Below, one piece after another: positions 18,616 to 38,004 of a DNA stretch of 64,000 bases. Origin of the DNA: a virus. Both the position numbers and the translations under genes were made by a program. Every line of letters starts with the position of its first letter. Position 1 is the stretch's first letter. Below the pieces are notes generated by a model. The model was not told where the DNA came from, did no database searches, and saw only the letters and a list, made by a program, of their open reading frames with translations. Where the stretch lies: positions 20,730-84,729 of IMG/VR virus record IMGVR_UViG_3300050011_000164, one strand, 5' to 3'.

Positions 18616-18628
18616 TTGTTTCCTGTGG

Positions 18629-19254: not shown

Positions 19255-19345
19255 GAAAAAAGGCTAGTTCCAAGTCCGATTCGAACGGAACTCATTGGAA
19301 CTAGCCTACCATTTTAATCAGAATCGGGGGTCTTTCTCCCCCATG
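19255..19345 (-). ncRNA. Candidate small RNA with tRNA-like T-arm inside a terminal hairpin
   Basis: TGGTATTAT -10, GGGGG/CCCCC hairpin, 13-bp stem enclosing TCCG-TTCGAAT-CGGA, then a T-run. Confidence 0.4.
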
Positions 19346-19374
19346 CACTATAATAATACCATAGTCTGGAACTT

Positions 19375-20115: not shown

Positions 20116-20284
20116 GTATCCCCCGTACTATATTAGAACTCAAAGTCACGTATTTGTTGCACGTTAAACCTCTATGGGAACCAGATGTCGTCGTCACCCG
20201 GTTGGGCTTGTAGATGACCGATCCAAATGAGTCCACCAACTATAAGCACGAAGCAAAGGATGAAAGCAGCGATTTGCCAGAACA

Positions 20285-21340
20285 TTATACCACCTGTGAA
20301 ACCTTTCGCCGCCCGCGCTTGCGCTTGGATTCCCCCGTATCGTTATTCTGGAAGCACGCGGCCAATTCTTTCAGTCGCGTGCGCTGACGAGCGAAAAGAG
20401 TCTCACTGATACCCAAAGATTTGGCAGCCTCATGCTGGGACGATGCCTGTTGAATCGCATCCATCGCAAATACCAACTCGGGCTCTTTCGCTTCGACATA
20501 ACGGCGGAATTCATTGGCGAGCAAGTAGTTCTCGTACTGTTGTGCCGTGCGAGACGTGGCGGCACTCAGGTAGTCCGAGTGCACATGGCAGTAAGCATCA
20601 TCCACCACGTCGTACTCACCGTTCTCGTGGCTGGGATCGACATTCGTCACGATGGTGACGTTGCCAATCCGACAGATGGGATTCTTGTTGCGCTTCGAAT
20701 ACACGGTGTTGAACTTGTTCGTGAGGCACATGTTAACATACGAGCGGAAACGACGCTCACTCGCCCCATACTGACTGATCGGATTGAATGTTTCGATCAC
20801 ATCCGTGCAGCCATTTACTCGGCCATTAGCACCCAGCTTGCGGTGCTTGCTAGATTGCGGTAGGTATTTCATGTGAATGATGAGGTCCTGAGTCCAGTCT
20901 TGAACATCCCCGTCAACGATAAAGCGAGCAAGGCGCTTCTTAACCCAATTGCTGATGTAGAGGGGGTAGCGTTCGTAGAATTCGAGGAAGTCCTTTGGAA
21001 CACGGAAACCGTCGTCGCCGATGTAGTGCCCCGTGCGAGGATCATACTGAATCTTGTCGTATTGGCTATCGGGTTTGGCGGGTGCTGGCGTGGTGACTGG
21101 GATCAGGTCCATCGGCATTGTGCGTCGGACGTGCCACACGCCGTCGATTTCCTCACCGATGGCGATAAGGGTCTTGATGAGTTCGTATTGCCATTGGTCG
21201 CCACATTCGTTTGGCAAACGTTCCGTCGCGAGAGCGAACAGTTGATCGATGCGCTTAGGGCCTTGAAAGAGAGCTATAGCTAAGAGGTTGCCGAACTTGA
21301 GAGAAGAAAATGCGAATGCAGCGGTCTCTAACGGAACCAT
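20285..21340 (-). CDS. Sigma-factor-like / HTH transcription protein (start uncertain)
   Basis: DVQDWTQDLIIHM and FRSYVNMCL resemble region 2; C-term QHEAAKSLGISETLFARQRTRL HTH resembles region 4. Confidence 0.5.
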   Translation of the reverse strand: MVPLETAAFAFSSLKFGNLLAIALFQGPKRIDQLFALATERLPNECGDQWQYELIKTLIAIGEEIDGVWHVRRTMPMDLIPVTTPAPAKPDSQYDKIQYDPRTGHYIGDDGFRVPKDFLEFYERYPLYISNWVKKRLARFIVDGDVQDWTQDLIIHMKYLPQSSKHRKLGANGRVNGCTDVIETFNPISQYGASERRFRSYVNMCLTNKFNTVYSKRNKNPICRIGNVTIVTNVDPSHENGEYDVVDDAYCHVHSDYLSAATSRTAQQYENYLLANEFRRYVEAKEPELVFAMDAIQQASSQHEAAKSLGISETLFARQRTRLKELAACFQNNDTGESKRKRGRRKVSQVV

Positions 21341-22011: not shown

Positions 22012-24141
22012 TTAAAAACGGCGTCCCTTGCCTCGGGATACCCTGTGGCTTCCGCCGCCAAATTTGAACTTGCTCATCTGGTACGTGCGTTCCGCTTGCT
22101 TCAGGTCCATCATGCTCATAGCATCGATATTGAGGATCGGCTTATGCGGAAGTGCCTGCTGTCGCTGCATGATGAGGCTCTGCCCCGTAGGGTCCATTTT
22201 CAAGTGACCCTCATCGATTAGCCATTGCTGAACTTGCATGGCGACAAGCATGACCGCATCCACCATGTCGTCGTGGGCTCCCTTTTCCAGAGGAGCGTGA
22301 ACGCGGATACGGTACTTGGCAACCACGTCGGTCTCCACCATCTTGATTTCGTGGATGAACTTCGGCACGTACGGAAAATTAGCTGTGTGGTCATTGATGA
22401 ATGACCGTAAAGCGTAAGCCATCTCCGAGTTGATCGCGGGGGTGAGATTCACCAATTCCATGTTATGGACTTCATTTTGCTCCAACAAAGTGATAAGCTG
22501 ACGACCTGCGTGTTGATCGGTTGAGCCCTTAAAACAGGGAAGGATTTTGTTCATTTCCTTCAACCAGAGTAGGATGTCACCTACGGGTAAGAGTTGGAAA
22601 TCCTTGTACTTGATACCGTCAGGAGTTTGAATGACAACCCCCGGACCTTCGAATTGCTCGCCAGCAATCATACGGTCGATGTAGTCAAACACTAGGTGGA
22701 AACCGTGGGTTAATCCGGGTGTTGGATTAGCGGCTTGACGAACCTCAAGGTGCCCAATCGCCAATGCCGAAGCGTCGGGCCTAGTATTATCGGGATCAGT
22801 GACGTTCACACCGCCAAGATCAAGGCCCCAGAAGTAGTTAAAGCCCACTTGATCGCCATTGAATCGCGTGGTGTTTAGACGAACGCTCGCACTGGGTAAA
22901 GGTTTGCCCATGCTGTCCCACGCACCTTCAGGCTTACCATTCACCAAAACATCCGTGCAGGTTATGATATCGATGGATCGAACGAACGATTCCGTAGATT
23001 CCAAGAATTGTCCGCCGTACTCAGCCCTGAACGTGATGGGGTTCTTACGAGCTTTGTCACGCAAGAACCCTGCCTTCAATTTCGGGTTCATTTCTGCCGA
23101 TGAACAACTGAGGGCAAAGGTTGGGTTATCCTCGTTGATACCATCTTCCATCGCCATACGGTAGAGATCGTACATCATACCGACTTTCTTCAATGGCGAT
23201 GAGATGCTCAGAATCAATGAATCCTGAATTTCGACTTTACCATCCGTGCCTGCGGGTTCCACGTGGTGGAAATCGCCCGTCTGGTGAAAGTCGGCCTCGT
23301 CGATGATGGGGGCGGATTCATCGTGATGGAAGTCGCCAGCGGCAGGTGTAGCAGCATCGTACATATCTTCAGACGTAGAACCTATCTCGGAACGGAAGTG
23401 AGCGAACTCATCAAGAGCGAGGAAGAGAGATGACGGACCACGGACAGCGTTCGTAGTACAGGGTAACGACACGACTTGAACAGACGGCTTGGCAGCAACC
23501 TTGTGATGACGGTCAGCCTCGCAAGTGAACGTCAGGTTTTTGGCGTTGTTGTCCTTGATGTAGGTATGGAACCACGTTGCACGAGTGACGGCAGCCTGAA
23601 GCTTTTGGAACAAGCGACCTGCGCCCGTTTCGTCCTGAGCCAAGAAGGTGAAGTCTATCTTTGAGCCCTCAGCCAAACCGAAGAACTTCTGCGGCGAGTT
23701 GATGCACAGCGTTAGGTAGAGCTTGTAGGCGGCAATGGCCGCAACGGCTTCCGATTTACCGCCACGACGACCACAGAAGATAACCGCTTCGTTAAAACCT
23801 CTCTGTGGTATATCTCGCCAGTCTCCGACGTTGCAGCGTCCCTCTTCGTGGACGATATGGAGATACTCTTCTTCCGTGACCGTGCAGATCAGTTCATCGC
23901 GGAAGGGGTTCCACATCTCCACCATTCCCCAGTTTTCGATGGCGTCAGCCCACTTGGGACGATAATCAAACGGGACGGCGAAGAGTGCCTTGATGAGGAC
24001 TCGCTGAACGGGACGCAGGACGATACCCGTCCCTCCCGGTCCTTCAATGAAATCAATGGCATTGATCTTCCTTGTCGCATCAGGCAGGATGTTGTCTGCG
24101 ATCTTTGTCCAAGCTGTATTTTTGACTTTCTTATCAGCCAT
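22012..24141 (-). CDS. terL: Terminase large subunit
   Basis: Walker A CGRRGGKS, Walker B LALDEFAHF, ISSP coupling motif, nuclease GLDLG...HDDMVDA; start placed at MADKK. Confidence 0.88.
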   Translation of the reverse strand: MADKKVKNTAWTKIADNILPDATRKINAIDFIEGPGGTGIVLRPVQRVLIKALFAVPFDYRPKWADAIENWGMVEMWNPFRDELICTVTEEEYLHIVHEEGRCNVGDWRDIPQRGFNEAVIFCGRRGGKSEAVAAIAAYKLYLTLCINSPQKFFGLAEGSKIDFTFLAQDETGAGRLFQKLQAAVTRATWFHTYIKDNNAKNLTFTCEADRHHKVAAKPSVQVVSLPCTTNAVRGPSSLFLALDEFAHFRSEIGSTSEDMYDAATPAAGDFHHDESAPIIDEADFHQTGDFHHVEPAGTDGKVEIQDSLILSISSPLKKVGMMYDLYRMAMEDGINEDNPTFALSCSSAEMNPKLKAGFLRDKARKNPITFRAEYGGQFLESTESFVRSIDIITCTDVLVNGKPEGAWDSMGKPLPSASVRLNTTRFNGDQVGFNYFWGLDLGGVNVTDPDNTRPDASALAIGHLEVRQAANPTPGLTHGFHLVFDYIDRMIAGEQFEGPGVVIQTPDGIKYKDFQLLPVGDILLWLKEMNKILPCFKGSTDQHAGRQLITLLEQNEVHNMELVNLTPAINSEMAYALRSFINDHTANFPYVPKFIHEIKMVETDVVAKYRIRVHAPLEKGAHDDMVDAVMLVAMQVQQWLIDEGHLKMDPTGQSLIMQRQQALPHKPILNIDAMSMMDLKQAERTYQMSKFKFGGGSHRVSRGKGRRF

Positions 24142-24161
24142 ATATAAAAGGAATTGGTAGT
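24142..24161 (-). promoter_or_regulatory. Putative late promoter ACTACCAATTCCTTTTATAT directly before ATG
   Basis: Closely matches ACTACCAAAGTCTTTTATAG (39562) and ACTACCAAACGCTTCTCTCAG (38018-38039). Confidence 0.5.
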
Positions 24162-24178
24162 AGGAGGATTTGGGGAGG

Positions 24179-24352
24179 TTATTCGCCGCGTTCGTACTTG
24201 CAGCCTTCACAGTCGAGTGGACAGGGGGTGGGCACGTAGCAGGTATCACAGATGAAGTATTTGGTGAAATCTTCGCCGAAGAGTTCGGCCATAATCTTCA
24301 ACTTCTTTTCGAGGTCTTCGTCGAGAGGATTATCGCATTTTATACAGTTCAT
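24179..24352 (-). CDS. Small Cys-rich protein (57 aa, not in ORF track)
   Basis: Manual translation MNCIKCDNPL...ICDTC...CPLDCEGCKYERGE. Confidence 0.55.
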   Translation of the reverse strand: MNCIKCDNPLDEDLEKKLKIMAELFGEDFTKYFICDTCYVPTPCPLDCEGCKYERGE

Positions 24353-24426: not shown

Positions 24427-24501
24427 TGGAACCCGCGACGGGACTCACACCCGCAACTCCTTCGTTTAGAATGAAGTGCTCTGCAATTGAGCTACGCAGG
24501 T
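24427..24501 (-). tRNA. tRNA with CUA anticodon (amber suppressor-type), atypical D and T loops
   Basis: ACCTGCG TA GCTC-AATTGCA-GAGC A CTTCA-TTCTAAA-CGAAG GAGTT GCGGG-TGTGAGT-CCCGT CGCGGGT T CCA; 75-nt cloverleaf with encoded CCA. Confidence 0.8.
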
Positions 24502-25585: not shown

Positions 25586-28500
25586 TCATTCTTTCGTGCC
25601 GCATATAAAACTGTATGTCGCGATCAAGCTCTCGGTGTCGATGTCATCGATACGGACGAAGACTTCGTACACGTAGCCGCCCTCTTCACCTTCGTGCCAC
25701 ACCGCACCCTGAGCCGAGGAGCTATTGATAGCGTCCTTGATCTCGCTGTCGGTGAGCTTGTTCATCAGGTACTTCACGCGGCTCGCCTGATTGTAGATAT
25801 TGAAACTCGACAAACCTTGCGGCTGTTCGACCTGAGCCAGTTGGATTTCACCCTTGCCCGGGACTTGGTTCAACATCGGACGGTAGGTGACCTTGAACAG
25901 TGCCACTAGGGTAGCCGCAATCTCACCGCAGACGTACTGAAGGAAGATTGAGAACTGCTTGGCTTCGTCGGCACCTGCGACCTTGCCCAGCTTCAGGCTC
26001 TTCAGATAAGCTAGTGCGGAACCCGGACGTACAAACCCTGCGGCTTTGCCGCTTGCGAATGCTTTGCCCGGCACCCCCGTTTGCTGACCGTAAAACTCGT
26101 CCGTAAACATCATACCACGGATGTCATTCTCTTTGCGGAGTGGAGCACCTTCGAGCACTTCAGGCTTGCCATCACGACCGATGCCAGCAGCCGCAGCGGG
26201 GCTGGTGCTGACGTAGGCGATGATGGTGGTGTCAAGAGCACCTTCGAGAGCGGCTGCAAGAGCTATCTCCTCTGGAACTTCGTCCTTGTCACCAACGATG
26301 TCGGGATACTGCATCGGGGTGTTGGTCTGGTTTGGATAATCCACGAGTTCATGCTGAAGCTCGGGGGCGATTTCGCGAAGTACCTGACCCGGGAAGAAAA
26401 AGTTGAAGCCTGCTTCCTTTTCGATCTCTTCGGGAGTCTTAGCCGCACCTTCGCCCGCATGAACTGGGGGAAGTCCTGCCGCTTCTTCTTTGTTGTATTT
26501 GTCCACGGAATCAATTGCTCCTTGTTCGGAATCGCGGATTCCGATGAATTGCTTGCCCTGATTGACCTGCCAGCGAGTGGGGCTAACCTGATCGTATGTG
26601 TATGGTTCTGCTGCTGCTTTCTTCACGCCCTTACCTCCTGCCATATAGTCCTCGTCATCCCAGCGCAAACCGTGCTTAGCTAAGATTTGCAAAGCTTCTT
26701 CTTTGCTCGGCCCGCCCATGACACCCAGCATCGCTGGGTTCATCTTGAGGGAATCGATTGCGATGCGAAGCTGGTGCTTCTCAGGTACGCTCATGGCAGC
26801 CACTCTTTTCAATACTGCGGTTGCTGTCCTGAGGGATTCCATTTTGATGCCCATGTTGTCCAACATCTTGTCGTCCTGCTTATTCGTCTGTGGGTACTTG
26901 TCGGGGTTCTCCGCACGCTCGGATTCCATCTCCGCAGTGGCGATCTCTTCCCAGTTAACTTCATTTGAGGGCTGTTCCCAATCGCTCTGCCCACCCGCGT
27001 CGTACCACATGTTCGTGATACTATCGACGAAATCACGAGCCTTGTTGCCGCTCGGCGATTTCACCACGCCTTCGAGTTGCTCGCGTTCGTGCTTTCCACG
27101 CTCACCACGGGCATTCTCGGCGTTCTCCGCATAGAACTTCTTACTCTGCTCACCGAACTTCTTGAAGAGGCGGGCGAACTGACCTGCCAACTCCTTCGGG
27201 GTCATTTTCTTCTTCAAGGCATTACGAACCAAATTGTGGAGCGTCGTAAGCCCCGCCGAGTCGTTGTTAATCATCAGGGCAGTGTGACCTGTGATCCAAT
27301 CGTCGTAGCCGAAATGGTCCGCCGCCATCTTAGCCAAGCTCATCATGCTGGCTCCCTTAGAGGGCTCCCACTTTACAGTGCAACCTGCGGGACAATCCAC
27401 TGGGTCCTGTAGCCGACCTTCATACGTCCCATCCGCAGCATACGCCACTGGAACCATCGGTGGCTGGGGCTTCGGCGGTACGGGCGACGGTGGTTGACCC
27501 TTCATCTGGCGGCTACGGTTCTGCGAGATGATCTGGTTACGCTCCTGTACCAACTTCTGGTACTCGGCGTATGACGTTGCTGCCAGTTTTGCGGAGGCGT
27601 GCTGCGTCATGTACCGCTTGTAATCGTTCGGTCCCTTTTCCTTACCACCCCAGTATGCGTCGGCATCCGCCAACTCTTCGGAACGCTGGCGGCGAAGTGC
27701 GGGACTGTTGGGGTCCTGTTTCGTCTCAGACGGCGGATGCTGAATGGTCTGCTTCTGATACGGCTGCATCTTCCACAGGTACTTTTCAACAAGCTTGTTG
27801 ACTGCCGCTTCAGGTTTGGGGATCGCAGCGTACTCCTTACGGAAACTGTCCGCATCCGTCCCACGAAGAACGTACTCACGTCCATTCATGGTCAGCAGCA
27901 TGTGGAACCCCTGCTCATCCTGACCCTGTGCCACGTTAATTGCGGCGGTACGAACCATGTGCAGATATTCCTGCCCAGCCTGCTTGAGGTTTGCCTCATT
28001 GAACAAACTTGCGTTCTTAAGAAATGCCGCCTTGAGTTCGTGGTATGTGGCGATCTTTCCCTTGCCGTATTTCCCGCTCAGGATGTCGTCAAGCTGCTGT
28101 TCGGTAATCTTGAAATAATCCATGCAAGACTGACGGCCCATGCCCGAAGTGTACTGACCGCGAACCCGAGCAACTGTGTCGGGACTGGGGGCAGCGCCTT
28201 CGAACAGGCTTTTGTGGCCTGCGTAACCTTCTTGCGGACGCTCTGCGTGCTTTTCCATATTCGGGGTTGCTGACAAGCTCGTACCTCCAAACATACCGTT
28301 AGCTGAAGTGTTTTCCCTCGGGTGCTGCTTCTCACCACCGATAGGTTGTTCTTTCTTACCTGCCTCGATCCCACGACGCGCATACTCTGGTTCACGTGCA
28401 GGAGGAGCCGCTGGCGGCATACTGGATACGGCTTCGGAGCCACATGCAGCGCATTGTCCCCTTACACTGAGTTCTCCCTCGTTGCCGCAATTGAGACATT

Positions 28501-28927
28501 GCCATTTTTCCCGAGGCACTTCGGATGCGATGTTGATGATGATTTGAGTCCCGGGTTTAGCGGTGACTTCTTGTGCGGCGGCGTTGTCCTTGACTTCTTT
28601 GTCTCCATAAGGACCATCGCCCCTAGTCGCCATCTCATCTTCTTTCTCTTCGATGGTTTTACCGATCTCCATCTCGGCCTGAGCTTCGATGGCATCTCGG
28701 ACAGCGGAAACATTCTGGCGTTCAGGCGAACGAATTTCGCCGTCGAGTACGCCTACGCCGCTTTCGTCGTGGGAATTACCCACCAACTCATCGTTACTCG
28801 GCCCAGCTTCCGCCGTAGCTTCGGGGGTTGCTGGTTCGAGCTTCTGAGACAGATCATCGTCGCTGTGCATTAAGTCCGCCCCAACCCTGCGGGCGGCTTC
28901 ACGCAACCTATCGATACTAATTGGCAT
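25586..28927 (-). CDS. Large multi-segment (polyprotein-like) probable virion protein with repeated KxA motifs
   Basis: GGAGCAGGAAG RBS before MPISID; KHAE, KIAT, KNAS, KQAG, RTAA, KLAA, KGAS, KMAA, RVAA, KKAA, KEAG, KAAG, KVAG separate short segments. Confidence 0.75.
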   Translation of the reverse strand: MPISIDRLREAARRVGADLMHSDDDLSQKLEPATPEATAEAGPSNDELVGNSHDESGVGVLDGEIRSPERQNVSAVRDAIEAQAEMEIGKTIEEKEDEMATRGDGPYGDKEVKDNAAAQEVTAKPGTQIIINIASEVPREKWQCLNCGNEGELSVRGQCAACGSEAVSSMPPAAPPAREPEYARRGIEAGKKEQPIGGEKQHPRENTSANGMFGGTSLSATPNMEKHAERPQEGYAGHKSLFEGAAPSPDTVARVRGQYTSGMGRQSCMDYFKITEQQLDDILSGKYGKGKIATYHELKAAFLKNASLFNEANLKQAGQEYLHMVRTAAINVAQGQDEQGFHMLLTMNGREYVLRGTDADSFRKEYAAIPKPEAAVNKLVEKYLWKMQPYQKQTIQHPPSETKQDPNSPALRRQRSEELADADAYWGGKEKGPNDYKRYMTQHASAKLAATSYAEYQKLVQERNQIISQNRSRQMKGQPPSPVPPKPQPPMVPVAYAADGTYEGRLQDPVDCPAGCTVKWEPSKGASMMSLAKMAADHFGYDDWITGHTALMINNDSAGLTTLHNLVRNALKKKMTPKELAGQFARLFKKFGEQSKKFYAENAENARGERGKHEREQLEGVVKSPSGNKARDFVDSITNMWYDAGGQSDWEQPSNEVNWEEIATAEMESERAENPDKYPQTNKQDDKMLDNMGIKMESLRTATAVLKRVAAMSVPEKHQLRIAIDSLKMNPAMLGVMGGPSKEEALQILAKHGLRWDDEDYMAGGKGVKKAAAEPYTYDQVSPTRWQVNQGKQFIGIRDSEQGAIDSVDKYNKEEAAGLPPVHAGEGAAKTPEEIEKEAGFNFFFPGQVLREIAPELQHELVDYPNQTNTPMQYPDIVGDKDEVPEEIALAAALEGALDTTIIAYVSTSPAAAAGIGRDGKPEVLEGAPLRKENDIRGMMFTDEFYGQQTGVPGKAFASGKAAGFVRPGSALAYLKSLKLGKVAGADEAKQFSIFLQYVCGEIAATLVALFKVTYRPMLNQVPGKGEIQLAQVEQPQGLSSFNIYNQASRVKYLMNKLTDSEIKDAINSSSAQGAVWHEGEEGGYVYEVFVRIDDIDTESLIATYSFICGTKE

Positions 28928-31900
28928 CTTCCTGCTCCACAACTAAGTCCGCCAGATCACCGATACCGAGATCGATTGGACGTTCCTCGTCTTCTTCGTC
29001 GCCATAGCCTGCACACGCTGTGTGTGCATTCAGTGCGTCGGTGCCGAGTTCCGCGACAATCTCCAGAGTGTTCTGAAGTTCATCCACGTTATCGCCCTCT
29101 TCGTAAAGCTCACCATCTACGAATACTTGGTAGCCGTCTGTGAAGGTCAGGACTTCGACGCGGCTGTCGTTGAGCATGAAATGCCCCGGCTCGCCATCGT
29201 CACTCCAACCCATACCCACCAGCGTCTCGACATACGGGAATTCCCCGACTTCGGCTGGCATTCCTGCGGCTGCTTCTTTCGTGTCGTCCGCCGCGTCCTC
29301 GTGTGGTGGTTGTGGCTTCTGTGGTTCCACAGGAGCGTCACCGCGTAGTTCTGGTTTCGTCTCCAAAGGCGTATCATTGCCTTTTAACTGATCGTCTTGT
29401 GATTCAGGCTTCGTCGCCAGAGGCTTGCCCTTTGACTGATTGCCCTGTGGCGCAGCCAAGTCACCCTGTTGACGATTGTCGCTGTCAACGCCCGGAGAAA
29501 CGGCATCCGCTGCCTGTTCAGGGTTGCGCGGAGTTCCACGTCCACCCCCGCCGCCTCCACCGCCGCCAGAGCCTTCGCCCGTGCCGCCAGTTCCATCAGA
29601 ACCCGGTCCATCGCCGCCCGGACCCGAACCGCTGTCCGTATCGACGGTAGATGCACCGCCCGTGCCGCCGTTGTAGATGATGATGGTGGGGGTTTTAGGT
29701 TGCACTCCACCAGCAGGTTGACCAGCGGCTTGTACACTGCCGTCTTCACCGCCGCCTTCGTCACCACCCGCTGAGTTTGTGCTCGTTGGTGCAATGCTCA
29801 CAGTTCCACCCGTGCCAGCCCCGCCTGTTCCCGTGCTGGTCGCCGCACCACCCGTGCCAGCCCCGCCCGTACCTGCACCACCCATGCCGCTACCTACGCC
29901 GCCAGTTGATGCACCGCCCGGACTTGAACCGCCAGTTTCGGTTGATGTTTCGTTGCCAGAAGTTTCCGAGGTTCCATTACCACCCGCACCCGCTGGTGCT
30001 GCTACGGCTGCTGGTGCTGGTGCTGCTGGAACCGCTGCTGGTGCTGCTGCTGGTGCTGCCGCTGGAGCTTCAGCCTTCGCGGGAGGAGTAACGGCGGGCT
30101 TATTCTTGCCCTTCGTCTCATCAGGCTTGGCTGCTGGTTCATCTTCAGCTTCGGGTTTCTCGTCAGCTTCAACTTCAGGCTTCTCGTCATCTGCCTCAAC
30201 GGGTTCTTCCTCATCCGCCGAGAAATGCTCAGGGTTGACCGTCTTGGTCGCACGTGAGTCATTCGCCAAATCTTTCTTGGCTCCATGGTCGAGTTCCGAC
30301 TTGGCTTCGGAGATATCCCCCGAGATGTCCGCCGAGTTCATTGTCATACGGTCTGTTTCAGCAATGTCCTGTGCGTAAGCATTATCGGCTTCGCGCTGAG
30401 CTTGAACATACGCTTCTGTTGCAGCTTCCGCTTCTGCCGCAAACTCAGGGTAGACCTGACCCGATACTGGGTCGATGTGCTCTTCACAGTCTTCCGCTGG
30501 TATCTGGCAGATTGCACAGAAGTCTTGTGCGCCTGCTGGCGGTTCATCGTTACGGCTGATGGCGGTCTTCTGAGAAGAACGCTTACCAGCCTCGCCTACG
30601 GACTCCGTGGGCTGCTTGATGTCCTTGTCAACGGTGTCTGGGTTGACTACTTCGGACTTCGCTTCCGAGATGTCCCCCGAAATGTCAGCCGCGTTACGAC
30701 GTGTCAGTTCACGAGCATCGCGTTGACGCTGCGCTTCCAGACGTTTCGCACGCTCTTCATTGGTTTCTTCCGCCACATCACCCTCTACCTTGAACATCGG
30801 CTCTTCTTCCTTCGACCACGTAGCCAACGGGTTCTGGTAGGTGCCGTCGTTCGGGTAAACCGCAGCTTCAGTTGGGTCGAAATGACCAATCAGATGCTCG
30901 TTGTGCCCGCCGGGTTCCATGCTCTTGAGCAAAGCTTCCATATATCGTGCGAGGTTCGCATCATTTGGCTTACCTGCACCACGCTGTTGTCCGTAACCCT
31001 TCACGTCCCACGCAGCATCGGTCGAGCCCGGAATACGAATGACGTACTTCGGTGTAATGGTACGGCCAGCGGTCTTGCTGATATCAGCGTCCGTCTTCGG
31101 AAGGATGGCACCGTCGCCATCAGCTTCGTTTGCAGGATTGTCGGCGGTGTCCGCCGTCTTTCCCTCACCGAAGTAAGATGCGAAGTCATCCTCGGCGTAA
31201 TTTGCCGTCTTTTCGCTCGACGCCAGAATCGCGTCGTCAAAGTTGGGCTCCATCTGCTCTTCCAGAGTGATGTACTGAGTGTTCTCTCCGAAAGGAACGT
31301 CGCTCTCTTCGAAGTGACCATTCTTATCGCGACAATCGCCATTCCAACCGAGTCCGAGTTTCTCGGAGGTCGTCAAGGATGGGTGTACGCCGCCGCAGGC
31401 ACCGCACTCGTAGAATACTGCGGGTGCCGTTGCTTGAGCTTCTTCCATCTGATCCAATGCCGCGCCATTTTCGTCAGCGAGGATGGAATCGAGTCCAGCG
31501 AAATGCTCATCGTCTTCGTCGTAACCGTTATCGAACGAAGGCTCCGCAGAGCAGCATGGATCATCCTCGTTCACGGTGCTGCCGCATTCGAAGCACTTAC
31601 GCTGCTTTACCCAACCCTGTTGGTCGGCGTCCCAGCGAGAATTCTGGTTGGGGCAACCTGTTTCGTGAGTCGCAACACCGTTGATGCTCAACATCTCGCA
31701 CTGGTCGCAACGAACACGCTGTCTGGGGCGAGCATTAGGTGCAGCCGTCTTGGAGTCTTCTTCCTTTGGCTCTTCCTTCTCTTCCTTTGGCTCGTCCTTC
31801 TTCTCGGACTTACTCTTGCCACGGTTCTTCGCCCATTCGGATTTAGAACCACCCTCGGACTTTGTTTCTTTCGAGTCCGCCGATGCTCCGTCGTCGCCCG

Positions 31901-34571
31901 TGCTGGGCTCGTCCTCTTCGGACTTGGTGGTATCGTTCTCAAGAGCCTCTTCCACCTTTACGGTCGGCTCTTCCTGATCGCCCTTGACCTGCTCGGGAAC
32001 GTCGCTCTTCGAGTCCGCACTCATCTCTGGAGCTTCGATCTCGTGCTGCCCTGTGGTGGACTTTTCGTTGTCCTTACTCTCGCCCGGAAGTCTAATCTCG
32101 GGTGCAGGCCCCATGTCTTCCATCGTCTCGGACCAAATGTCGTCGATATCCTGAGGAACATCGGCGAATTTCTTACGCTGAGACGAATACTTGCGGGCCA
32201 TCTCTTCTTCACGCTTCTTAGCCGCCGTGACGGAGTGCTGCGAGCGAGCATCGTAATCCTCGCCGCCAAACCCGCCGCCAATCAAACTGGCAATGTAGGA
32301 TGCGTCGTTTTGCGAAGCCGTCTTCTTGGACGCCTTCTTGGAGGAGATCACGGGTGGAACCTGCCCACCCTTCTGATCCTGTCCGTGGTCGCGTTCGCCA
32401 GCGTCTTCTGCTCCGAACTGATAGATCATGTCATCGTCACCGACGTAAATGTCCACGTTACCCCAAGCCTTGGAAGCCTCGGTCAAGCCATCGCCCGTTG
32501 TCGGGTAATCGCCATCCCAATAGCCCGCTCCGTGACCGCAGCGGGTGAGCCAGAAATCATGACCCTGACGGAAGTCGTCCTGACCATCCTGTTCGGATGC
32601 CGCAGCCAAAAGCTCGGCATTCTCCGCTTGGAACTTAGCGCAATCTTCGGTCATCGCCTGCAAGCAGGAGGGAGCGAGATCGCGGATATCGTAATTCTGA
32701 TCCAATGGCTGTCCACCGCTTGGATCGGACTCGTCATTCGAAGACCACAGAGCGGTCTCGATGTAGCCACGAGTGAAGTTGTCGAATTCAGCGGCGACCT
32801 TCTTGGCAGTGCCCACCCACAAGGAGGAAGCCTGCTTCTTGCCTAGCCCGCCCCACTTGGCGGCGTCGAAAGATGCGTGATGATCCTTCAGAGCATCTTT
32901 GCCCTGACGAGCCTGACTCACGTTCTTCTTCAAGTGCTCACTGATGGCTTCGGGATCGTCCTCTGCACCCTTCTTCGAAGACGAGATCGACAAAGGAGTC
33001 GGCCCATGCTTCCCTGCGGCGATCTCCTTCTTGTGATCGGCTACCGCGTGATGAGCCTGATTATCCTGACTCATGCTGGCGGCGTATTCCTTCATCTTGT
33101 CGGCATGTTTTTCGAGAGCCTCTTTAGCCTCTTTACCGCCTTTGCGGACTCCATCCAGTACCGCACTAGCGGATGCGCTCAAATCGCCAGCCTGAGTTTG
33201 TGCCGCGAGACGTTCAACATCCCCCGTACAGGTCAGACCCTCAACACGCTTCGCCTGCTTGTCAGCGGCCCTCTTGTCGTACTGAGCCTTGACTTCGCCA
33301 GCCCATGGACCCGGATTCTTTTCCTCGTACTTCTGGATCGCTTCCTTTATGTTGCTCGCCCATGTCGTGCTTGCAACATATTTGCCGCTAACGAAGATAT
33401 CGATCTTCGGGAAATCGCGACGGTCGCCGTAAGCGGCGGACTTTCCCTTACGCTCTTCTTCTGGACGGCGAGGTACGCCAGTCTCATCGAGAGCGATGCC
33501 AATTGGTGCGCTGTTGATGACGGCCTTCGGCGTGTCCTTCTCGTCCTTGTAACCTTCGGTGCGCTGGTTAGCTTCGTCGTGAGCTTCGGTGCCGGGGCCA
33601 ACGTTCGTAATCGGGGTCTCGAATACCGCAGTGGCGGAACCCTTCTTGACGCCCTTGTTGCAGAACTTGCAGCCATCGCCTTCGCACTTGTCGCATTCCT
33701 GAGCCGCAATACGGGGAACCATTTCGCCCTTTGTCGGAGCTTTACCTTCGGAAGCGTTTTCAACGCCCTTGGTGCCGCTTGGCATGATGCTGTTGCGGAG
33801 AGCCGTGTCCAAAGATTCGAACACGTCCATCTCCTGAGGTTCTAAGACAGCTTTGGTAACTTCGTCGGCGGTCTTGATGGTCAAACCGAGGCGGGTTCTC
33901 TTCTTCGACCCTTCCTTGGTGAGGAGCGGGTATTCCTTCAACGGATTCTCAGCCAAAGCGGGGAAGTTCATCTTCGGCGTGATGTCCGTGACATCGAACT
34001 TCGAGGTCTCCACATCGGTCATCATGGCATCGAATGCCGAGGACAGACGGGGGTCGAAGTACGAACTGAAGACCAAATGACGGGTCAGGTTTGCAAGCTG
34101 GTTATCGTCTTTCGGGAATTGGAAACCGATGTACTCACGCTTGTTAACCCAGTTAGGAGCGAACAGGATGAGGGCGGCGAACTTACCATCTTCGGAGCCG
34201 AACAACTCTTCCTTAATCGACGCATAGGACGCCTGAGAATATTCATCCCATTCGGTATCACCGATTTTGTGGGAGATCATGTCGCCAATTTCCTCACCAC
34301 CAAAGGTGCGAACAAGACAACCATAGAGCAGTGCGGTCGGGAAGTCCTGCCCCTTCTTGTCAGCAACCGAGGGAGGGACGATGTAGATACGACCGATGGC
34401 AATGTTCTGACGAAAGCCCTTGTAAAAAATTTCAAAGCTTTGGACGTTGCCCGAACTACGGGCTTCCTTCTCGCCAGCCTTAATAGCTTCGACAGTTTTG
34501 CTAAGCAACCCATCATTGACCATGAAGGACTGGAAAGACTTTAATGCGACTGTGTTTCCGCTCTGAGCCAT
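28917..34571 (-). CDS. 1884-aa multi-segment (polyprotein-like) probable virion protein with repeated KxA motifs
   Basis: KTAD, KSAA, KRAA, KQAK, KHAD, KQAS, KVAA, KTAS, KFAD, KTAA, KTAN, KTAG, KTAI; internal repeat ADISGDISEAKSE; Gly/Thr/Ala low-complexity tract. Confidence 0.8.
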   Translation of the reverse strand: MAQSGNTVALKSFQSFMVNDGLLSKTVEAIKAGEKEARSSGNVQSFEIFYKGFRQNIAIGRIYIVPPSVADKKGQDFPTALLYGCLVRTFGGEEIGDMISHKIGDTEWDEYSQASYASIKEELFGSEDGKFAALILFAPNWVNKREYIGFQFPKDDNQLANLTRHLVFSSYFDPRLSSAFDAMMTDVETSKFDVTDITPKMNFPALAENPLKEYPLLTKEGSKKRTRLGLTIKTADEVTKAVLEPQEMDVFESLDTALRNSIMPSGTKGVENASEGKAPTKGEMVPRIAAQECDKCEGDGCKFCNKGVKKGSATAVFETPITNVGPGTEAHDEANQRTEGYKDEKDTPKAVINSAPIGIALDETGVPRRPEEERKGKSAAYGDRRDFPKIDIFVSGKYVASTTWASNIKEAIQKYEEKNPGPWAGEVKAQYDKRAADKQAKRVEGLTCTGDVERLAAQTQAGDLSASASAVLDGVRKGGKEAKEALEKHADKMKEYAASMSQDNQAHHAVADHKKEIAAGKHGPTPLSISSSKKGAEDDPEAISEHLKKNVSQARQGKDALKDHHASFDAAKWGGLGKKQASSLWVGTAKKVAAEFDNFTRGYIETALWSSNDESDPSGGQPLDQNYDIRDLAPSCLQAMTEDCAKFQAENAELLAAASEQDGQDDFRQGHDFWLTRCGHGAGYWDGDYPTTGDGLTEASKAWGNVDIYVGDDDMIYQFGAEDAGERDHGQDQKGGQVPPVISSKKASKKTASQNDASYIASLIGGGFGGEDYDARSQHSVTAAKKREEEMARKYSSQRKKFADVPQDIDDIWSETMEDMGPAPEIRLPGESKDNEKSTTGQHEIEAPEMSADSKSDVPEQVKGDQEEPTVKVEEALENDTTKSEEDEPSTGDDGASADSKETKSEGGSKSEWAKNRGKSKSEKKDEPKEEKEEPKEEDSKTAAPNARPRQRVRCDQCEMLSINGVATHETGCPNQNSRWDADQQGWVKQRKCFECGSTVNEDDPCCSAEPSFDNGYDEDDEHFAGLDSILADENGAALDQMEEAQATAPAVFYECGACGGVHPSLTTSEKLGLGWNGDCRDKNGHFEESDVPFGENTQYITLEEQMEPNFDDAILASSEKTANYAEDDFASYFGEGKTADTADNPANEADGDGAILPKTDADISKTAGRTITPKYVIRIPGSTDAAWDVKGYGQQRGAGKPNDANLARYMEALLKSMEPGGHNEHLIGHFDPTEAAVYPNDGTYQNPLATWSKEEEPMFKVEGDVAEETNEERAKRLEAQRQRDARELTRRNAADISGDISEAKSEVVNPDTVDKDIKQPTESVGEAGKRSSQKTAISRNDEPPAGAQDFCAICQIPAEDCEEHIDPVSGQVYPEFAAEAEAATEAYVQAQREADNAYAQDIAETDRMTMNSADISGDISEAKSELDHGAKKDLANDSRATKTVNPEHFSADEEEPVEADDEKPEVEADEKPEAEDEPAAKPDETKGKNKPAVTPPAKAEAPAAAPAAAPAAVPAAPAPAAVAAPAGAGGNGTSETSGNETSTETGGSSPGGASTGGVGSGMGGAGTGGAGTGGAATSTGTGGAGTGGTVSIAPTSTNSAGGDEGGGEDGSVQAAGQPAGGVQPKTPTIIIYNGGTGGASTVDTDSGSGPGGDGPGSDGTGGTGEGSGGGGGGGGGRGTPRNPEQAADAVSPGVDSDNRQQGDLAAPQGNQSKGKPLATKPESQDDQLKGNDTPLETKPELRGDAPVEPQKPQPPHEDAADDTKEAAAGMPAEVGEFPYVETLVGMGWSDDGEPGHFMLNDSRVEVLTFTDGYQVFVDGELYEEGDNVDELQNTLEIVAELGTDALNAHTACAGYGDEEDEERPIDLGIGDLADLVVEQEDAN
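30296..30690 (-). repeat. Intragenic direct repeat encoding ADISGDISEAKSE (2 copies, about 30296-30333 and 30652-30690)
   Basis: Seen in translation and nucleotide sequence. Confidence 0.8.
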
Positions 34572-34586
34572 GCTCGTTCCCCTTCG

Positions 34587-35129
34587 TTACTTCTGTTTGT
34601 TTGTGCCGATGTTTTCCGCTTCGCGACGAATGCGGAGTTCGTTCATTTCGATTTGGCTACGGAATTGCTTGACGTAGCTGGTAACCGTGTGCTCGTCCCA
34701 GCCCATGGAGCGGAGAGCTTCAACGCCCATCTGCAACCACTGGCCAGCGACGAACTGGAACTTCTCGCCATCGAAGTTGATGAAGTCACGCTTCGCTTGA
34801 TTGTCCATCTCAATGATTTGGCGACCAAGTTCACGGACGCCCTTCAGTTGCTCGCTGAGACTCTTGATGGCGAGATTGGCATCCATACCTTTAATACCCG
34901 AGGTTGGATTGTCCAGATGTTCGTTCATGCCGTCCAAAATCGACGCCATTTCGAGGGCGATGAGTTTGCTGAGTTCCGCCTGACTGATATTCGTGTCTTC
35001 GATCTTCGTCCGAATCTCATTCAGTTTGGAGCTAAGCTCACGCTTGCCCGGTTTCTTGACTTCCGCCGCCGCGTTGTACTTTCCTTCCAGATTGATCACC
35101 AGTTCTGTACGCTCGGTTTCGTTGCTCAT
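34587..35129 (-). CDS. Helical hypothetical protein in the late operon (terminase small subunit possible)
   Basis: TAATG coupling; all-helical character; function unverified. Confidence 0.6.
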   Translation of the reverse strand: MSNETERTELVINLEGKYNAAAEVKKPGKRELSSKLNEIRTKIEDTNISQAELSKLIALEMASILDGMNEHLDNPTSGIKGMDANLAIKSLSEQLKGVRELGRQIIEMDNQAKRDFINFDGEKFQFVAGQWLQMGVEALRSMGWDEHTVTSYVKQFRSQIEMNELRIRREAENIGTNKQK

Positions 35130-37060
35130 TACTCTATGTCTCCCATCTCAAAATGATTCCCCATCCGGGTATCATCAGCCCTGTCCTTGTTCATCTCAAT
35201 GTCGGCCATCTTCGTGTCGCCCGGACGCCCTGAATTCGGCATCAGATCAAACTCCGCAAGAATTGTACGCCCATCCTCTGGCGCACCTTCCCCAACCTTG
35301 TGATTGGATGATGTTTTGTCCATACCGGGGAAGCTCAATAGAGTCCCACCCGTGAGACCACAATGCATCCCCTTGCGATACGTGCAAGAACCGCATTTGT
35401 GTGCTCCAATAATTGGATTGTGATCGGCGAGCTTGTTCTTGAGGAACGTGCAGTCGATCTGACTCAACGCAACCTTGATCGGCTTGCGCTTCAGACTGGC
35501 GATGAATTCCTTCACGGCCTTGCTTGCCTGAGCGGTGCCAAACTTGGACGCTGCCTGCTTGTAAATCTTTTGTAACGAGTGCCCCTTCTTATGATACCGT
35601 TCGATGACGCTGGCATCGAGTTCAGGCTTGCTCGCACGATGTTCGTGACGCACCTGATCTGGGTTGCTCTCGTGGAATCCAGCGTGCGGAACACGGGAAA
35701 CATAATCAGCGGACGCTGCTGACTTGTGCTTCGCCATTACCGCCGAATGTGTCACACAGGATGCACACTTTGCACCCGCCACGAAATTCTGGTTGTGCAT
35801 CCCGGACTTTGCGAGAAATTCCGCATCGACCTTTGCGAGAACAACCTGTCCGTTGACATTTGGTTTCAGGCTACCGATGAACTCACGCAATGCCTTGCCT
35901 GCCGCATGTGCACCGAACCGCTTATCAGCCGCACGGAAGATAGCCTTCAGTGAGTGGCCCTTTACGTGCAACGACGCGATGTGCGAAGAGTCGAAGTCCG
36001 TTGCAATCACGCGGCCTACACGCTTCGCCTGCGCTTCCACGCTGCCGAGGCTCGGGTGACGAGAAACGGATGAGCTTGTCTTCGGGGCGATAGGCATGGA
36101 GCTTACTCTCGTGCCTGAATTGTCGTTGGCGATGTTCACCAACGCCGCCCGTTTCTGGTTGTTAGGCGTGCCCGGTGTGAGCTTATTCACAATGGGCGTA
36201 AGCTCAGCCGTGTTCGCTACAACGGGTAAGTGATAGAGATCACAGGTCTTAGAGCTACCGTTCTTCGAGAAATACTGACATCCTTCACATGCACTGATCT
36301 GCTTTACGGATGCAGCCCGTGGTGTGACGCCTGCTTTCTTCCACTGCTCGTGCTGGCGGACGCATTCGTTACTCGTACTGCCGTGCTTCTCTCGTTCATA
36401 AGTCGGGGAGTTCTTGTCCATGTAGGTATTCGGCTCAAGGAACGCCATGCCAACCAACCCAGCGTTTTCTTGCAGGTATTGAGTCGCCATCTGGTGATTG
36501 AACAATTCGATCTCAGCCAGCTTCTTGAGCTTCGCAGCGATCTTCGACGGTGCCATACCCTGATTGAGCAAGCTGTGGACGTACTTCTGAACCTGTGCAT
36601 CTGACACGTTCTTCTTCTCGACCTTGCCAGACGAAGCCGCTGATTCCAGCGTTTCCGTAACTTCGGCGAACAATGAGTCGTCATCGCCCAGCTTCGTGCT
36701 GTAGTCTTCTGGGTGCTGGGTTGCCTGCACACGCCAGTTCTGGTTGGAGCCCGCCACACCGCTGATGTGCTGATCCTTAGCCGCCATGCGATCCATGTGG
36801 GTGCCACGTGCACGTTCAAGACGGTCTTGTTGAGCGTTCTTTTCAGCGGAGCCCGTGCGACCCGGCCATAGCGGAGTATGTCTGCTGGCACTCTCAGCTA
36901 TTTCATCCATGAACTCTTCATCGACGAACTGGTGGGAGCGATCTAACTGTTCTTCACCTGAGCCTTGTGCATCTTTCAAGCCGAGGTCCTTCCAATCGGG
37001 CTCGCGGTCGTCCAAGAATGCGTCAACGATGCTGGTGTACGGTTTCTTTTCTTCTGCCAT
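35129..37060 (-). CDS. Late protein with internal tandem repeats and CxxC motifs
   Basis: Start at MAEEKK; two repeats of H.KGHSL..I...A..FG...A.KA..EFI.SLK...GA.KC.SC. Confidence 0.75.
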   Translation of the reverse strand: MAEEKKPYTSIVDAFLDDREPDWKDLGLKDAQGSGEEQLDRSHQFVDEEFMDEIAESASRHTPLWPGRTGSAEKNAQQDRLERARGTHMDRMAAKDQHISGVAGSNQNWRVQATQHPEDYSTKLGDDDSLFAEVTETLESAASSGKVEKKNVSDAQVQKYVHSLLNQGMAPSKIAAKLKKLAEIELFNHQMATQYLQENAGLVGMAFLEPNTYMDKNSPTYEREKHGSTSNECVRQHEQWKKAGVTPRAASVKQISACEGCQYFSKNGSSKTCDLYHLPVVANTAELTPIVNKLTPGTPNNQKRAALVNIANDNSGTRVSSMPIAPKTSSSVSRHPSLGSVEAQAKRVGRVIATDFDSSHIASLHVKGHSLKAIFRAADKRFGAHAAGKALREFIGSLKPNVNGQVVLAKVDAEFLAKSGMHNQNFVAGAKCASCVTHSAVMAKHKSAASADYVSRVPHAGFHESNPDQVRHEHRASKPELDASVIERYHKKGHSLQKIYKQAASKFGTAQASKAVKEFIASLKRKPIKVALSQIDCTFLKNKLADHNPIIGAHKCGSCTYRKGMHCGLTGGTLLSFPGMDKTSSNHKVGEGAPEDGRTILAEFDLMPNSGRPGDTKMADIEMNKDRADDTRMGNHFEMGDIE

Positions 37061-37064
37061 AGGT

Positions 37065-37685
37065 TTATGCCGCAGCCGAAGCTGCTTTCCCCTTCTTTGC
37101 ATTTGAAATCGCCATCTTCCATTCCGTAGATAATGCTCCACGTTTTCCAACACGAAGACGATTCCGATTTGCTATCCGCTGTGCTTGTGCTGCCCTACGT
37201 TCGGGAGTCCATGCAGCCCGCATCGCTGCTTTCATTGCGGCTTCCACTTCTTCGGCGGGTTTAACCGCAACTATTTTTTCGGTCGATGATGCCCAAGAGC
37301 TAGGTTTTTCAACTGTTGCGCTGTGACAGGTCTTCCTTTACGCTGCTCACTCCAAAGCTGTCTTGTTCTTTCCGAAATAATCCGGCCCACAGTTCCCTCA
37401 CCGCCCAGCGTCATGTTGTAGCCGTTCTCAACTTTATGACTTTGATGGAGAACGATGAAAAAGGTCTCCATCTTGGAGAGTTCATCAGCGGTCTTGGCAC
37501 GATAAATCACTTCGGACCTTGAAGGCATCCGAGCCGTACTTGCGAATAGTGCGGCATAGGTAACGATCCCCACCCCGTCTCGCTTCGCGAACGTGCTGTT
37601 GAAAACGAGCGTCTGCCTCATCTCCGACATATTTGCCGATGTAGACCCCACCGTTGATTCGATTTGTGAGCTTGTAAATCAGCAT
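37065..37685 (-). pseudogene. GIY-YIG homing endonuclease split by two frameshifts
   Basis: MLIYKLTNRINGGVYIG (frame A), shift near 37515 to EVIY...GYNMTLGG (frame B), shift near 37275 back to a NUMOD-like tail AWTPERR (frame A). Confidence 0.7.
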
Positions 37686-37686
37686 G

Positions 37687-38004
37687 TTAGAACTCGATAT
37701 CGTCAAAAGCACCCATAAAACCCATAGGGTCGTTTTTAGGGGCGGCGGCGATTGACTCTCCATTGTCTACCTCATCGCCAACTAGCTTTATGATACTGTT
37801 TCCTTTTACTTTCCAAAAATCCCGAGTGCTCGGTGATTCATATATATTGCCAGCTACTCGTTCCAGTCCCATGCTGGCGATCTTTTGCTTGAGGGCGGGA
37901 GGTATGGGGGTGCTGGAAATGAAGTGGTTGACCGTGAAAACGCTGGAATCAGCGGACTTTTGAGCCCCCAACCCAAAACTTGACACCGCACGAAGCTTGC
38001 CCAT
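37687..38004 (-). CDS. Hypothetical late protein (first gene of large late operon)
   Basis: GAGGT RBS; KSAD, KIAS and RVAG motifs; late-type motif upstream. Confidence 0.7.
   Translation of the reverse strand: MGKLRAVSSFGLGAQKSADSSVFTVNHFISSTPIPPALKQKIASMGLERVAGNIYESPSTRDFWKVKGNSIIKLVGDEVDNGESIAAAPKNDPMGFMGAFDDIEF

Follow-up and report, generated by a model that had tools for sequence, protein, structure and literature searches.

A Lys-x-Ala motif at module borders as a candidate head-protease processing site in shuffled head proteins of soil jumbo phages

We analyzed a 64,000-nucleotide stretch of viral DNA (hereafter the window; positions 20,730 to 84,729 of the 84,729-bp IMG/VR record IMGVR_UViG_3300050011_000164), in which a gene block next to the large terminase gene terL encodes proteins of 1884, 1113 and 643 residues that are rich in the motif Lys-x-Ala followed by Ala, Ser, Asp or Gly (K-x-A). 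The motif is enriched in these proteins, is restricted to head proteins in the relatives, is conserved at several positions and stands at the borders of modules that are shuffled among relatives. We conclude, with a probability of about 0.65, that K-x-A is a processing site of the phage head protease and that these proteins are its substrates; this figure covers, with their overlap allowed for, both the explanation we favour and the rival in which cutting occurs but its products are discarded.

The gene block and its Lys-x-Ala sites

Judged by its gene content, the 84.7-kb record covers only part of a jumbo-phage genome akin to that of Tunturiibacter phage Tunturi_5, since it holds no homologue of capsid, portal or protease, and its relatives in IMG/VR sit on contigs that reach 186 kb (close relatives) or measure 300–463 kb (more distant ones). 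Tunturi_5 is a 309-kb myovirus isolated from Arctic soil (PMC11924767). A megablast search of 15 kb against 50,697 phage records gave no match. The Tunturi_5 gene order gp347-gp348-gp349-gp350-terL recurs in the window as genes for 105, 643, 180 and (1884 + 1113) residues followed by terL. By this order and by homology, these genes are the local copy of a conserved gp347–gp350 block, which in a clade of 300–460-kb soil phages closes the virion-gene block directly before terL. The genes of the block and the terminase are as follows.

37687..38004, minus strand: gp347 orthologue of 105 residues, with 3 motif sites (0.4 expected)
35129..37060, minus strand: gp348 orthologue of 643 residues, with 11 sites and an internal repeat
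34587..35129, minus strand: gp349 orthologue of 180 residues (29% identity, E 9e-20), without a K-x-A-[ASDG] site; absent from a listing limited to ORFs of 200 residues or more, or with 3 sites or more
28917..34571, minus strand: open reading frame (ORF) of 1884 residues, N-terminal part of a gp350-like head protein, with 20 [KR]-x-A-[ASDG] sites and a TAG stop
25586..28927, minus strand: C-terminal part of the gp350-like protein, 1113 residues from the ATG at 28927 or 1118 residues from a TTG at 28942, with 13 sites
22012..24249, minus strand: large terminase (TerL), the synteny anchor (phrog_2, E 3.7e-11; 40% identical over 94% of its length to Tunturi_5 TerL)

The three large proteins that an earlier sequence-only reading of this DNA had placed next to terL do exist on the minus strand, with 1113 residues counted from the ATG and 643 from the Met at which relatives begin in the alignment (a 674-residue form, 35129–37153, starts at a GTG), and all six examples of a motif followed by a short segment were found where that reading had located them. 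A motif no commoner than composition predicts would have spoken against that reading, but the counts show an excess. The pattern [KR]-x-A-[ASDG] occurs 20 times in the 1884-residue ORF as compared to 8.7 ± 2.8 in residue shuffles, 13 times in the 1118-residue ORF (4.6 ± 2.0; P 0.0005 from 2000 shuffles), and 11 times in the 674-residue ORF (3.2 ± 1.7); neither the first nor the last count was reached in any of 2000 shuffles. The remaining 85 ORFs of the record were flat, with 50 sites (42.4 expected) and no excess of KTA (2 against 4.8). All tripeptides and gapped motifs found five times or more were also ranked in an unbiased scan, where KxAA took second place in the three proteins (14 against 3.5), after the low-complexity word GxGG, and first once a 4132-residue protein of the same record joined the scan (28 against 5.8, Poisson 3e-11). 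The ORF of the latter (record positions 8669–21067, minus strand, its last 338 bases being window positions 1–338) contains 9 KTA (1.6 expected) and 14 KxAA (2.4 expected), many of which precede recognisable module starts, as well as two HExxH words.

The enrichment was replicated in 30 orthologous proteins from 12 distant loci, a set from which five rows of the close relatives L003 and L007 were left out; its members are mutually homologous, so that the following counts are not independent. K.A (any residue at the dot) occurred 583 times against 290 expected and KTA 99 times against 14.6, and all four extended forms were increased (KxAA 113 against 30, KxAD 87 against 20, KxAS 72 against 19.5, KxAG 67 against 24). 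The sequence-only reading had allowed Lys or Arg in the first position; Lys is indeed enriched, but Arg is not (RxAA 22 against 15 in relatives), and we therefore treat the motif as Lys-specific. In 37,868 residues of family proteins, K.A reached 1.98 times its expectation, as compared to 1.15 for A.K, 0.92 for KA and 1.17 for K..A, and to 1.09 for R.A, 1.01 for K.G and 1.01 for E.A. The signal thus depends on the order and the spacing of the residues. Around K-T-A, Ser is enriched 4.5- and 2.8-fold at two and one residues ahead of the Lys, and Asp, Ala, Gly and Ser follow the Ala.

The sites are not scattered at random along the chains. Module starts, defined as clusters of the starts of BLAST high-scoring segment pairs (HSPs) against distant relatives, lay at −4 to +10 residues from a site in 16 of 31 cases; random placement gave 4.7 ± 1.9, and none of 5000 placements reached 16. 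The proposal that the motif precedes self-contained segments is thereby upheld for about half of the module starts. Within the HSPs, K.A was the best kept of 15 two-residue control patterns (125/309, or 0.40, as compared to 0.11–0.34). Four sites stand out in an alignment of 15 orthologues of the gp350-type protein:

33864-33875, minus strand: conserved KTAD site, residues 233-236 of the 1884-residue ORF
33702-33713, minus strand: conserved P-R-x-A-[AS] site, residues 287-290 of the same ORF
26408..26419, minus strand: K-E-A-G site, residues 842-845 of the 1118-residue ORF, K-[EK]-A-[GA] in 15/15 orthologues
25973..25984, minus strand: second K-x-A-[GAS] site, residues 987-990 of the 1118-residue ORF, kept in 14/15 orthologues

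KTAD follows the N-terminal domain in most of the 15 orthologues, and is itself followed by a conserved helix and then by P-R-x-A-[AS]. The K-[EK]-A-[GA] site lies exactly where the conserved C-terminal region starts, the sequence upstream of it being unalignable, and all 14 rows of alignment A1 share its K1, A3 and G4. The second C-terminal site precedes the last subdomain; the one orthologue without the Lys is that of L017.

Head proteins and protease of the relatives

Tunturi_5 encodes a head maturation protease (gp331), an acidic scaffold-like protein (gp332), and a 319-residue capsid protein (gp334), which allowed us to follow the motif through a head module. Among the 34 Tunturi_5 proteins covered by the counts, sites were increased in the "ejection protein" gp328 (14 against 2.8 expected), gp350 (12 against 2.8), scaffold-like gp332 (9 against 2.3), gp348 (8 against 2.5), and the portal (5 against 1.7). 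The capsid protein has two sites (0.4 expected), both at residues 19–29, and the protease has two as well (0.5 expected), at residues 33 and 265. Three tail proteins of 929–1381 residues have none and a fourth, of 1186 residues, has two (0.7 expected); TerL has none, and the 1423-residue DNA polymerase has one. In G005, a complete relative of 299,875 bp, the gp350 orthologue ranked first of 316 ORFs (14 against 3.0), and the top 20 also held the ejection-type, scaffold-like, gp348-type, portal and capsid proteins; the ORFs outside the top 20 had 77 sites against 78.0 expected. The motif is thus restricted to head-module proteins in Tunturi_5 and G005. Furthermore, a 1968-residue ORF in G001, a 186-kb contig, has 14 sites (4.1 expected), and the scaffold-like protein showed 9 against 2.3, 13 against 4.4, and 6 against 2.3 across genomes.

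Two K-x-A sites in the first 30 residues of the capsid protein are kept in 6/6 genomes, and K-x-A-[AS] flanks the invariant core of the protease on both sides in most of the six. The sequence-only reading expected the prohead protease elsewhere in the genome: blastp at 1e-3 found no homologue on the record, but protease and capsid homologues were present in 5/5 related records searched (61–64% and 72–74% identity, respectively). One of these protease-bearing contigs, G001, carries an orthologue of the C-terminal domain of the 1118-residue protein that is 94% identical to that of the window. The protease has a PHROG match to phrog_18299 (annotated "head maturation protease"; E 6e-15), as the capsid protein has to phrog_2522. 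The nearest named ESM Atlas clusters of the protease carry Peptidase_S78, S77 or S80, with scores of 0.90–0.93 that we take as leads only. Beside its main capsid gene, the 456-kb record G002 (that of locus L008) carries a second capsid-protein paralogue (273765–274649; 46% identity, E 5e-58).

Architecture and modules of the gp350 family

The N-terminus of gp350 (1080 residues) matches the start of the 1884-residue ORF and its C-terminus the end of the 1118-residue ORF: residues 3–262 of the former are 39% identical to gp350 residues 1–262, and residues 842–1117 of the latter are 45% identical to gp350 residues 835–1078. From these alignments, we read the two ORFs as a genuine fission form of one gene, the gp350 gene of Tunturi_5. 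The gene forms two ORFs in most of the 17 related loci, and a single one in L011/L012 (2249 residues), L016 (1276 residues), and Tunturi_5; its total length ranged from 1080 to about 3600 residues (L003–L019 and Tunturi_5). A frameshift or read-through joining the two large ORFs was considered and rejected. The 1113-residue ORF overlaps the upstream stop by 11 nt in a different frame and has its own ATG and a purine-rich leader, read-through of the TAG at 28917–28919 would meet another TAG two codons on and yield no fusion, and the junction varies among relatives between overlap, abutment and gap, all of which argues for gene fission.

Three parts can be distinguished in the family, i.e., an N-terminal domain of about 230 residues, a middle that is hypervariable and consists of small modules in shuffled order, zinc-ribbon-like pieces and spacers of low complexity, and a conserved C-terminal region. 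In the window, these are represented by the following features.

33876..34571, minus strand: conserved N-terminal domain, residues 1-232 of the 1884-residue ORF (15-orthologue alignment; mean column identity 66% in alignment A2)
33456..33626, minus strand: linear element of about 55 residues, with the word TNVGPGTEA and then PIGI..DE.GVP (regular-expression matches)
32421..32792, minus strand: phrog_1915-like module, residues 594-717, directly after a KVA site (PHROG E 2.3e-24)
31482..31742, minus strand: Cys-rich zinc-ribbon-like module, residues 944-1030, after a KTA site (HSPs to L013, L015, L009, L014 and L017 at other coordinates)
29292..30224, minus strand: low-complexity Pro/Ala-rich and Gly/Thr/Ser-rich spacer, residues ~1450-1760, read from the translation, with GxGG as top motif
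28920..29270, minus strand: C-terminal module of the 1884-residue ORF, residues 1768-1884, behind a KEA site (58% identity to the C-terminus of the L008 orthologue)
26615..26797, minus strand: mini-domain, residues 716-776 of the 1118-residue ORF, after an RVA site (stand-alone homologues P0177-P0179)
25985..26410, minus strand: highly conserved segment, residues 845-986 of the 1118-residue ORF, predicted by AlphaFold2 (AF2) to be unstructured (predicted local distance difference test, pLDDT, <50 over model residues 1-150)
25589..25975, minus strand: alpha/beta C-terminal domain, residues 990-1118 of the 1118-residue ORF, the most conserved part of the family (AF2 pLDDT 65-84)

The segment of about 142–145 residues between the two C-terminal sites is highly conserved and yet predicted to be unstructured, which suggests a binding or anchoring role, so that we regard it as a candidate segment of that kind. 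Mean pLDDT was 48.7 for the C-terminal region and 50.3 for the N-terminal domain. A fold search with the C-terminal model against 48,161 representative PDB chains gave no clear match (best Z 3.0, root-mean-square deviation 5.1 Å, 80 residues), and neither model had a match in BFVD at E <= 0.001; with models this weak, these searches say nothing about the novelty of the folds. Searches for paralogues of the conserved ends by blastp (ORFs of the record, 40 kb of G001, all of G005, and 34 Tunturi_5 proteins) returned only orthologues. The TNVGPGTEA word was present in the window's own protein and ten relatives and PIGI..DE.GVP in the own protein and nine relatives; the pair occurs once per orthologue, about 30 residues apart, at positions ranging from 310 to 568. 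Such conserved short words may be docking signals. Another word, FGGKQAPPFG, was seen in four relatives and in an ejection-type protein of G001.

Modules of the middle are shuffled, in that the Cys-rich module and several others stand at different positions in relatives, even in the partner ORF. Of the modules in the three proteins, a single one could be placed in a catalogued family, and no module was recognisable as an enzyme or could be given an effector role: the only PHROG matches were phrog_1915 and phrog_20867, both to one module, Pfam yielded no family for the three proteins (E <= 0.1) or for gp350 (E <= 0.01), and HExxH is absent from each of the three proteins. The phrog_1915-like module is widespread, with 3736 matches at E <= 1e-10 in a library of 1.84 billion proteins, many of which are stand-alone proteins of 127–141 residues aligned from their own residue 2–5; in three of these, the initiator Met lies within 3 residues of the KVA site. 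The domain also occurs in 316 GenBank phage records, as small hypothetical proteins. The mini-domain behind the RVA site has stand-alone counterparts of 51–52 residues (P0177–P0179) that are 64–71% identical to it and start within 2 residues of the site, and it is also embedded in larger ORFs at the seven IMG/VR loci read. The sequence-only reading had likened the segments of its six examples to stand-alone proteins. This applies to two, whose homologues start no more than 3 residues from the motif, but limited searches found none for the other four.

Searches for further stand-alone homologues were limited, and their misses are weak evidence of absence. Residues 944–1030 and 380–436 of the 1884-residue protein and 541–715 of the 1118-residue protein had no tblastn match in the 50,697 phage records, and residues 1169–1265 of the former had no stand-alone homologue in a word-indexed search of proteins of 53–170 residues. 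An exhaustive HMMER search of residues 280–1300 was dominated by the phrog_1915-like domain, the matches listed being little informative on other modules, and a search for shorter homologues of the 1118-residue protein returned mostly fragments on short contigs. Ten of ten further fragments cut at the sites, including residues 1768–1884, matched no PHROG or Pfam family at the default 0.001; marginal matches (PHROG E 0.02 and 0.017; Pfam E 0.049) were set aside.

As to the surroundings, the minus strand reads from 38004 to 25586 through ORFs of 105, 126, 674, 180, 1884 and 1118 residues, followed by two small ORFs, a tRNA and the large terminase. The 126-residue ORF (37271–37651, minus strand), which has weak homing-endonuclease matches (phrog_314, E 3e-6; phrog_7168, E 3e-5), separates the 105- and 643-residue genes, whose Tunturi_5 orthologues gp347 and gp348 are directly adjacent. 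The tRNA (24427–24501, minus strand), just upstream of terL, has the anticodon CUA and was labelled Pyl by ARAGORN. Further on, a 246-residue protein (19375–20115, minus strand) has a TonB C-terminal domain (PF03544, E 6e-22), and a 351-residue protein (20285–21340, minus strand) is 33% identical to Tunturi_5 gp3, annotated as RNA polymerase sigma factor. A promoter-like word, ACTWCC-N5-CTT-N3-TAK, has five matches in the window at no more than one mismatch (0.49 expected; positions 10146, 12868, 24142, 39562 and 48265), none of them upstream of the gp347–gp350-type block, and the word thus gives no backing to the late operon of the sequence-only reading.

Processing by the head protease and its alternatives

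Prohead proteases of T4, phiKZ, 201phi2-1 and SPN3US are described as cutting capsid, scaffold and ejection proteins as well as themselves at a three-residue motif, often repeatedly within one propeptide (PMC5694885, PMC10052503). The distribution of K-x-A in Tunturi_5 and G005 is the pattern that these phages show for their own motifs, and for this reason we read it as a head-protease site. The probable explanation, in our view, is that chains of the gp350 type are cut at module borders by the head-maturation protease of the clade. We infer that this enzyme, encoded elsewhere in the genome, would act in trans inside the prohead and recognise Lys-x-Ala followed by Ala, Ser, Asp or Gly, often as Ser-x-Lys-Thr-Ala. 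It would cut the 1884-, 1113- and 643-residue types of protein at their module borders, presumably after the Ala, and would use the same site to trim the N-terminus of the capsid protein, to dice the scaffold-like protein and to trim itself. As to the fate of the pieces, retention in the head and entry into the host are favoured by the widespread solo modules, whereas clearance as propeptide fragments would fit better with the spacers of low complexity and with the precedent of SPN3US.

A more specific version, which we put forward only tentatively, is that the protease of the whole clade of 300–460-kb soil phages cuts after Ala in Lys-x-Ala, resembling herpesvirus sites at the cut and departing from the Glu rule of the T4-type and phiKZ-type phages studied so far, and that K-x-A serves as a plug-in joint for cargo modules. 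A small module placed behind K-x-A would be loaded into the head through the conserved ends of the gp350-type carrier, then be released as a small protein of its own and reach the host together with the DNA. Modules would then move between carrier genes and solo genes, and since cutting would separate the parts in any case, the gene would be free to split or fuse.

Among the closest precedents is T4 (gp21, IPI-III, Alt), where one motif serves the capsid N-terminus, the scaffold or core, the protease itself, and proteins that are packed and injected (PMC5694885). T4 cuts after Glu, whereas the conserved word here is Lys-x-Ala with a small residue, and no hydrophobic-x-Glu leader of the T4 type was apparent, L/I-x-E being outside the top 15 enriched motifs of the unbiased scan. 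Nor was a counterpart of the 10-residue targeting leader of T4 identified; the gp350 family instead opens with its conserved domain of 230 residues. Furthermore, T4 substrates are single small proteins, whereas chains of 1100–1900 residues with many modules are found here.

The phiKZ protease recognises S/A/G-x-E, and the A-x-E motif of phiKZ-type phages is unlike Lys-x-Ala. The clade also differs: TerL is 40% identical to that of Tunturi_5 and no phiKZ-like record was among the TerL matches. Like the present phages, phiKZ, 201phi2-1 and SPN3US are jumbo phages with many head proteins, and they have long propeptides cut at a repeated short motif (PMC10052503, PMC5694885). Their S80 protease (gp175, gp245) also detaches a C-terminal propeptide of its own, and the products enter the host by ejection (PMC10052503, PMC5694885). 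The protease of the present clade is not assignable to S80 by sequence, and its carrier has a middle of shuffled modules and a gene that often forms two ORFs.

Herpesvirus assemblin cuts at the consensus (V/L/I)-x-A followed by Ser. It shares with the putative rule an Ala before the scissile bond, a position deduced in our case, and a small residue after it, but has an aliphatic residue at the third position back, where Lys stands here. The assemblin fold is common to phage prohead proteases (PMC5694885), whereas the fold of the present protease was not placed by sequence.

Polyvalent proteins are likewise very large, fast-evolving and located beside virion genes, combine unrelated domains that also occur solo, and have been proposed to be delivered along with the DNA and processed into units (PMC5512222). 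The present block adjoins terL and is syntenic with the end of the structural-gene block of Tunturi_5, and distinct domains within one polypeptide are represented by one catalogued module (phrog_1915) and one mini-domain with solo forms. The processing enzyme proposed for polyvalent proteins is an embedded metallopeptidase (MPTase), frequent among them though not present in all, whereas none is detectable here by HExxH or Pfam and the sites point to a head protease acting in trans. A further likeness is to DarB and the other Dar proteins of P1, where a large head-associated protein is encoded among late genes and Dar proteins are proteolytically processed and packaged (PMC5512222). DarB combines a DNA N6-adenine methylase with a superfamily 2 (SF2) helicase (PMC5512222). 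The GenBank label of gp350, "DarB-like antirestriction protein", which stems from Phold, was not borne out by sequence, as neither gp350 nor the window proteins have a Pfam match, be it to a methylase or to a helicase.

Several observations weigh against the head-protease reading. On the window alone, KxAA has a value of 1.8e-5 across about 10^4 motifs and fails full multiple-test correction, and the weight of the case therefore comes from replication in relatives. K.A is conserved in just 40% of the HSP cases, and not every K-x-A site can be functional. TerL of the record shows a mild excess (5 sites against 2.0). The 643-residue protein, which the sequence-only reading had taken for a string of captured mini-domains, proved to be a conserved orthologue with an internal repeat, in which some K-x-A lie inside conserved helices, and outside homologues were found for only two modules, neither of known function. 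As the record holds no capsid, portal or protease homologue, the enzyme has to be deduced from relatives, and the Tunturi_5 protease itself matches no Pfam family and, whether searched as a single sequence or as a 5-sequence profile, no PDB sequence. The main text of the Tunturi_5 paper mentions neither mass spectrometry nor a protease (PMC11924767). The published motifs of T4 and jumbo phages in the sources consulted all cut after Glu, not Ala (PMC5694885, PMC10052503). Word searches of the open-access literature, which are weak evidence, found Glu-type motifs only and no Lys-x-Ala rule for a phage prohead protease, and found nothing on capsid processing in phage G.

The pieces might instead be waste, an alternative that we consider unlikely although it shares the cut itself. 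In that case the N-terminal domain and the variable middle would be cut many times, as a long propeptide or as filler akin to scaffold, and be removed from the head; of the whole chain, just the conserved C-terminal region would remain in the virion, and the middle would hold no delivered effector. SPN3US has such propeptides of 111–254 residues, and their cutting at several sites has been connected by the authors with easier removal from the capsid (PMC10052503, PMC5694885). Conservation is confined to the two ends of the gp350 family, about 300 residues of the middle are of low complexity, all ten middle fragments lack a PHROG or Pfam family at 0.001 (with the three marginal matches of E 0.017–0.049 set aside), and the scaffold-like protein has an equal motif density. 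The middle, however, also contains independently folding modules that are widespread (3736 matches for the phrog_1915-like one) or occur solo (the mini-domain, at 51–52 residues), relatives show the modules retained and rearranged, not in decay, and K-T-A also punctuates the 4132-residue protein of the record (9 against 1.6).

It is less probable still that K-x-A is not cleaved at all and represents a linker or helix-capping word, a binding or docking motif (for the capsid interior, scaffold or DNA), a lysine-modification site or a recombination joint. Some sites lie within conserved, probably helical segments, other conserved short linear words occur in the same proteins, and the motif travels with modules, so that inheritance inflates the counts. 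However, the motif is present in the capsid, protease, scaffold-like, portal and ejection-type proteins, which are unrelated and have no modules in common, and it lies at the places cut in T4, i.e., the capsid N-terminus and both ends of the protease (PMC5694885). Large multi-domain tail and replication proteins lack the motif, and the spacing and order controls were flat. Cutting by another enzyme, i.e., a host protease or an embedded peptidase of a polyvalent protein, perhaps after injection rather than in the prohead, is very improbable: zincin-like MPTase domains embedded in polyvalent proteins have been proposed to carry out their processing (Iyer et al. 2017, PMC5512222) and the 4132-residue protein has its two HExxH words, but the three proteins have neither HExxH nor a Pfam peptidase match, and the occurrence of K-x-A both near the start of the capsid protein and on either side of the head-protease core points to the morphogenetic enzyme.

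We therefore return to cleavage of the gp350-type chains by the head-maturation protease. Its principle is already textbook knowledge, as a prohead protease processes packaged proteins at a short motif in T4 and phiKZ-like phages, and it is also known from the concept of polyvalent proteins (PMC5512222). New would be the clade, the putative recognition rule, in which Ala precedes the cut, Lys stands two residues ahead of the Ala and a small residue comes next after the cut, the module-shuffled and often split carrier gene, and the absence of an embedded peptidase. If the reading is true, K-x-A would define a second specificity class of phage head proteases beside the Glu rule, and would explain both how giant, fast-shuffling proteins next to terL are built from small parts and why fission of their gene is tolerated. 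A cultured relative exists in Tunturi 5, which grows on Tunturiibacter psychrotolerans X4BP1. Should K-x-A prove to be the cutting rule, sequence alone would suffice to list the proteins that this large group of soil jumbo phages, so far hardly studied, carries inside its heads and probably injects.

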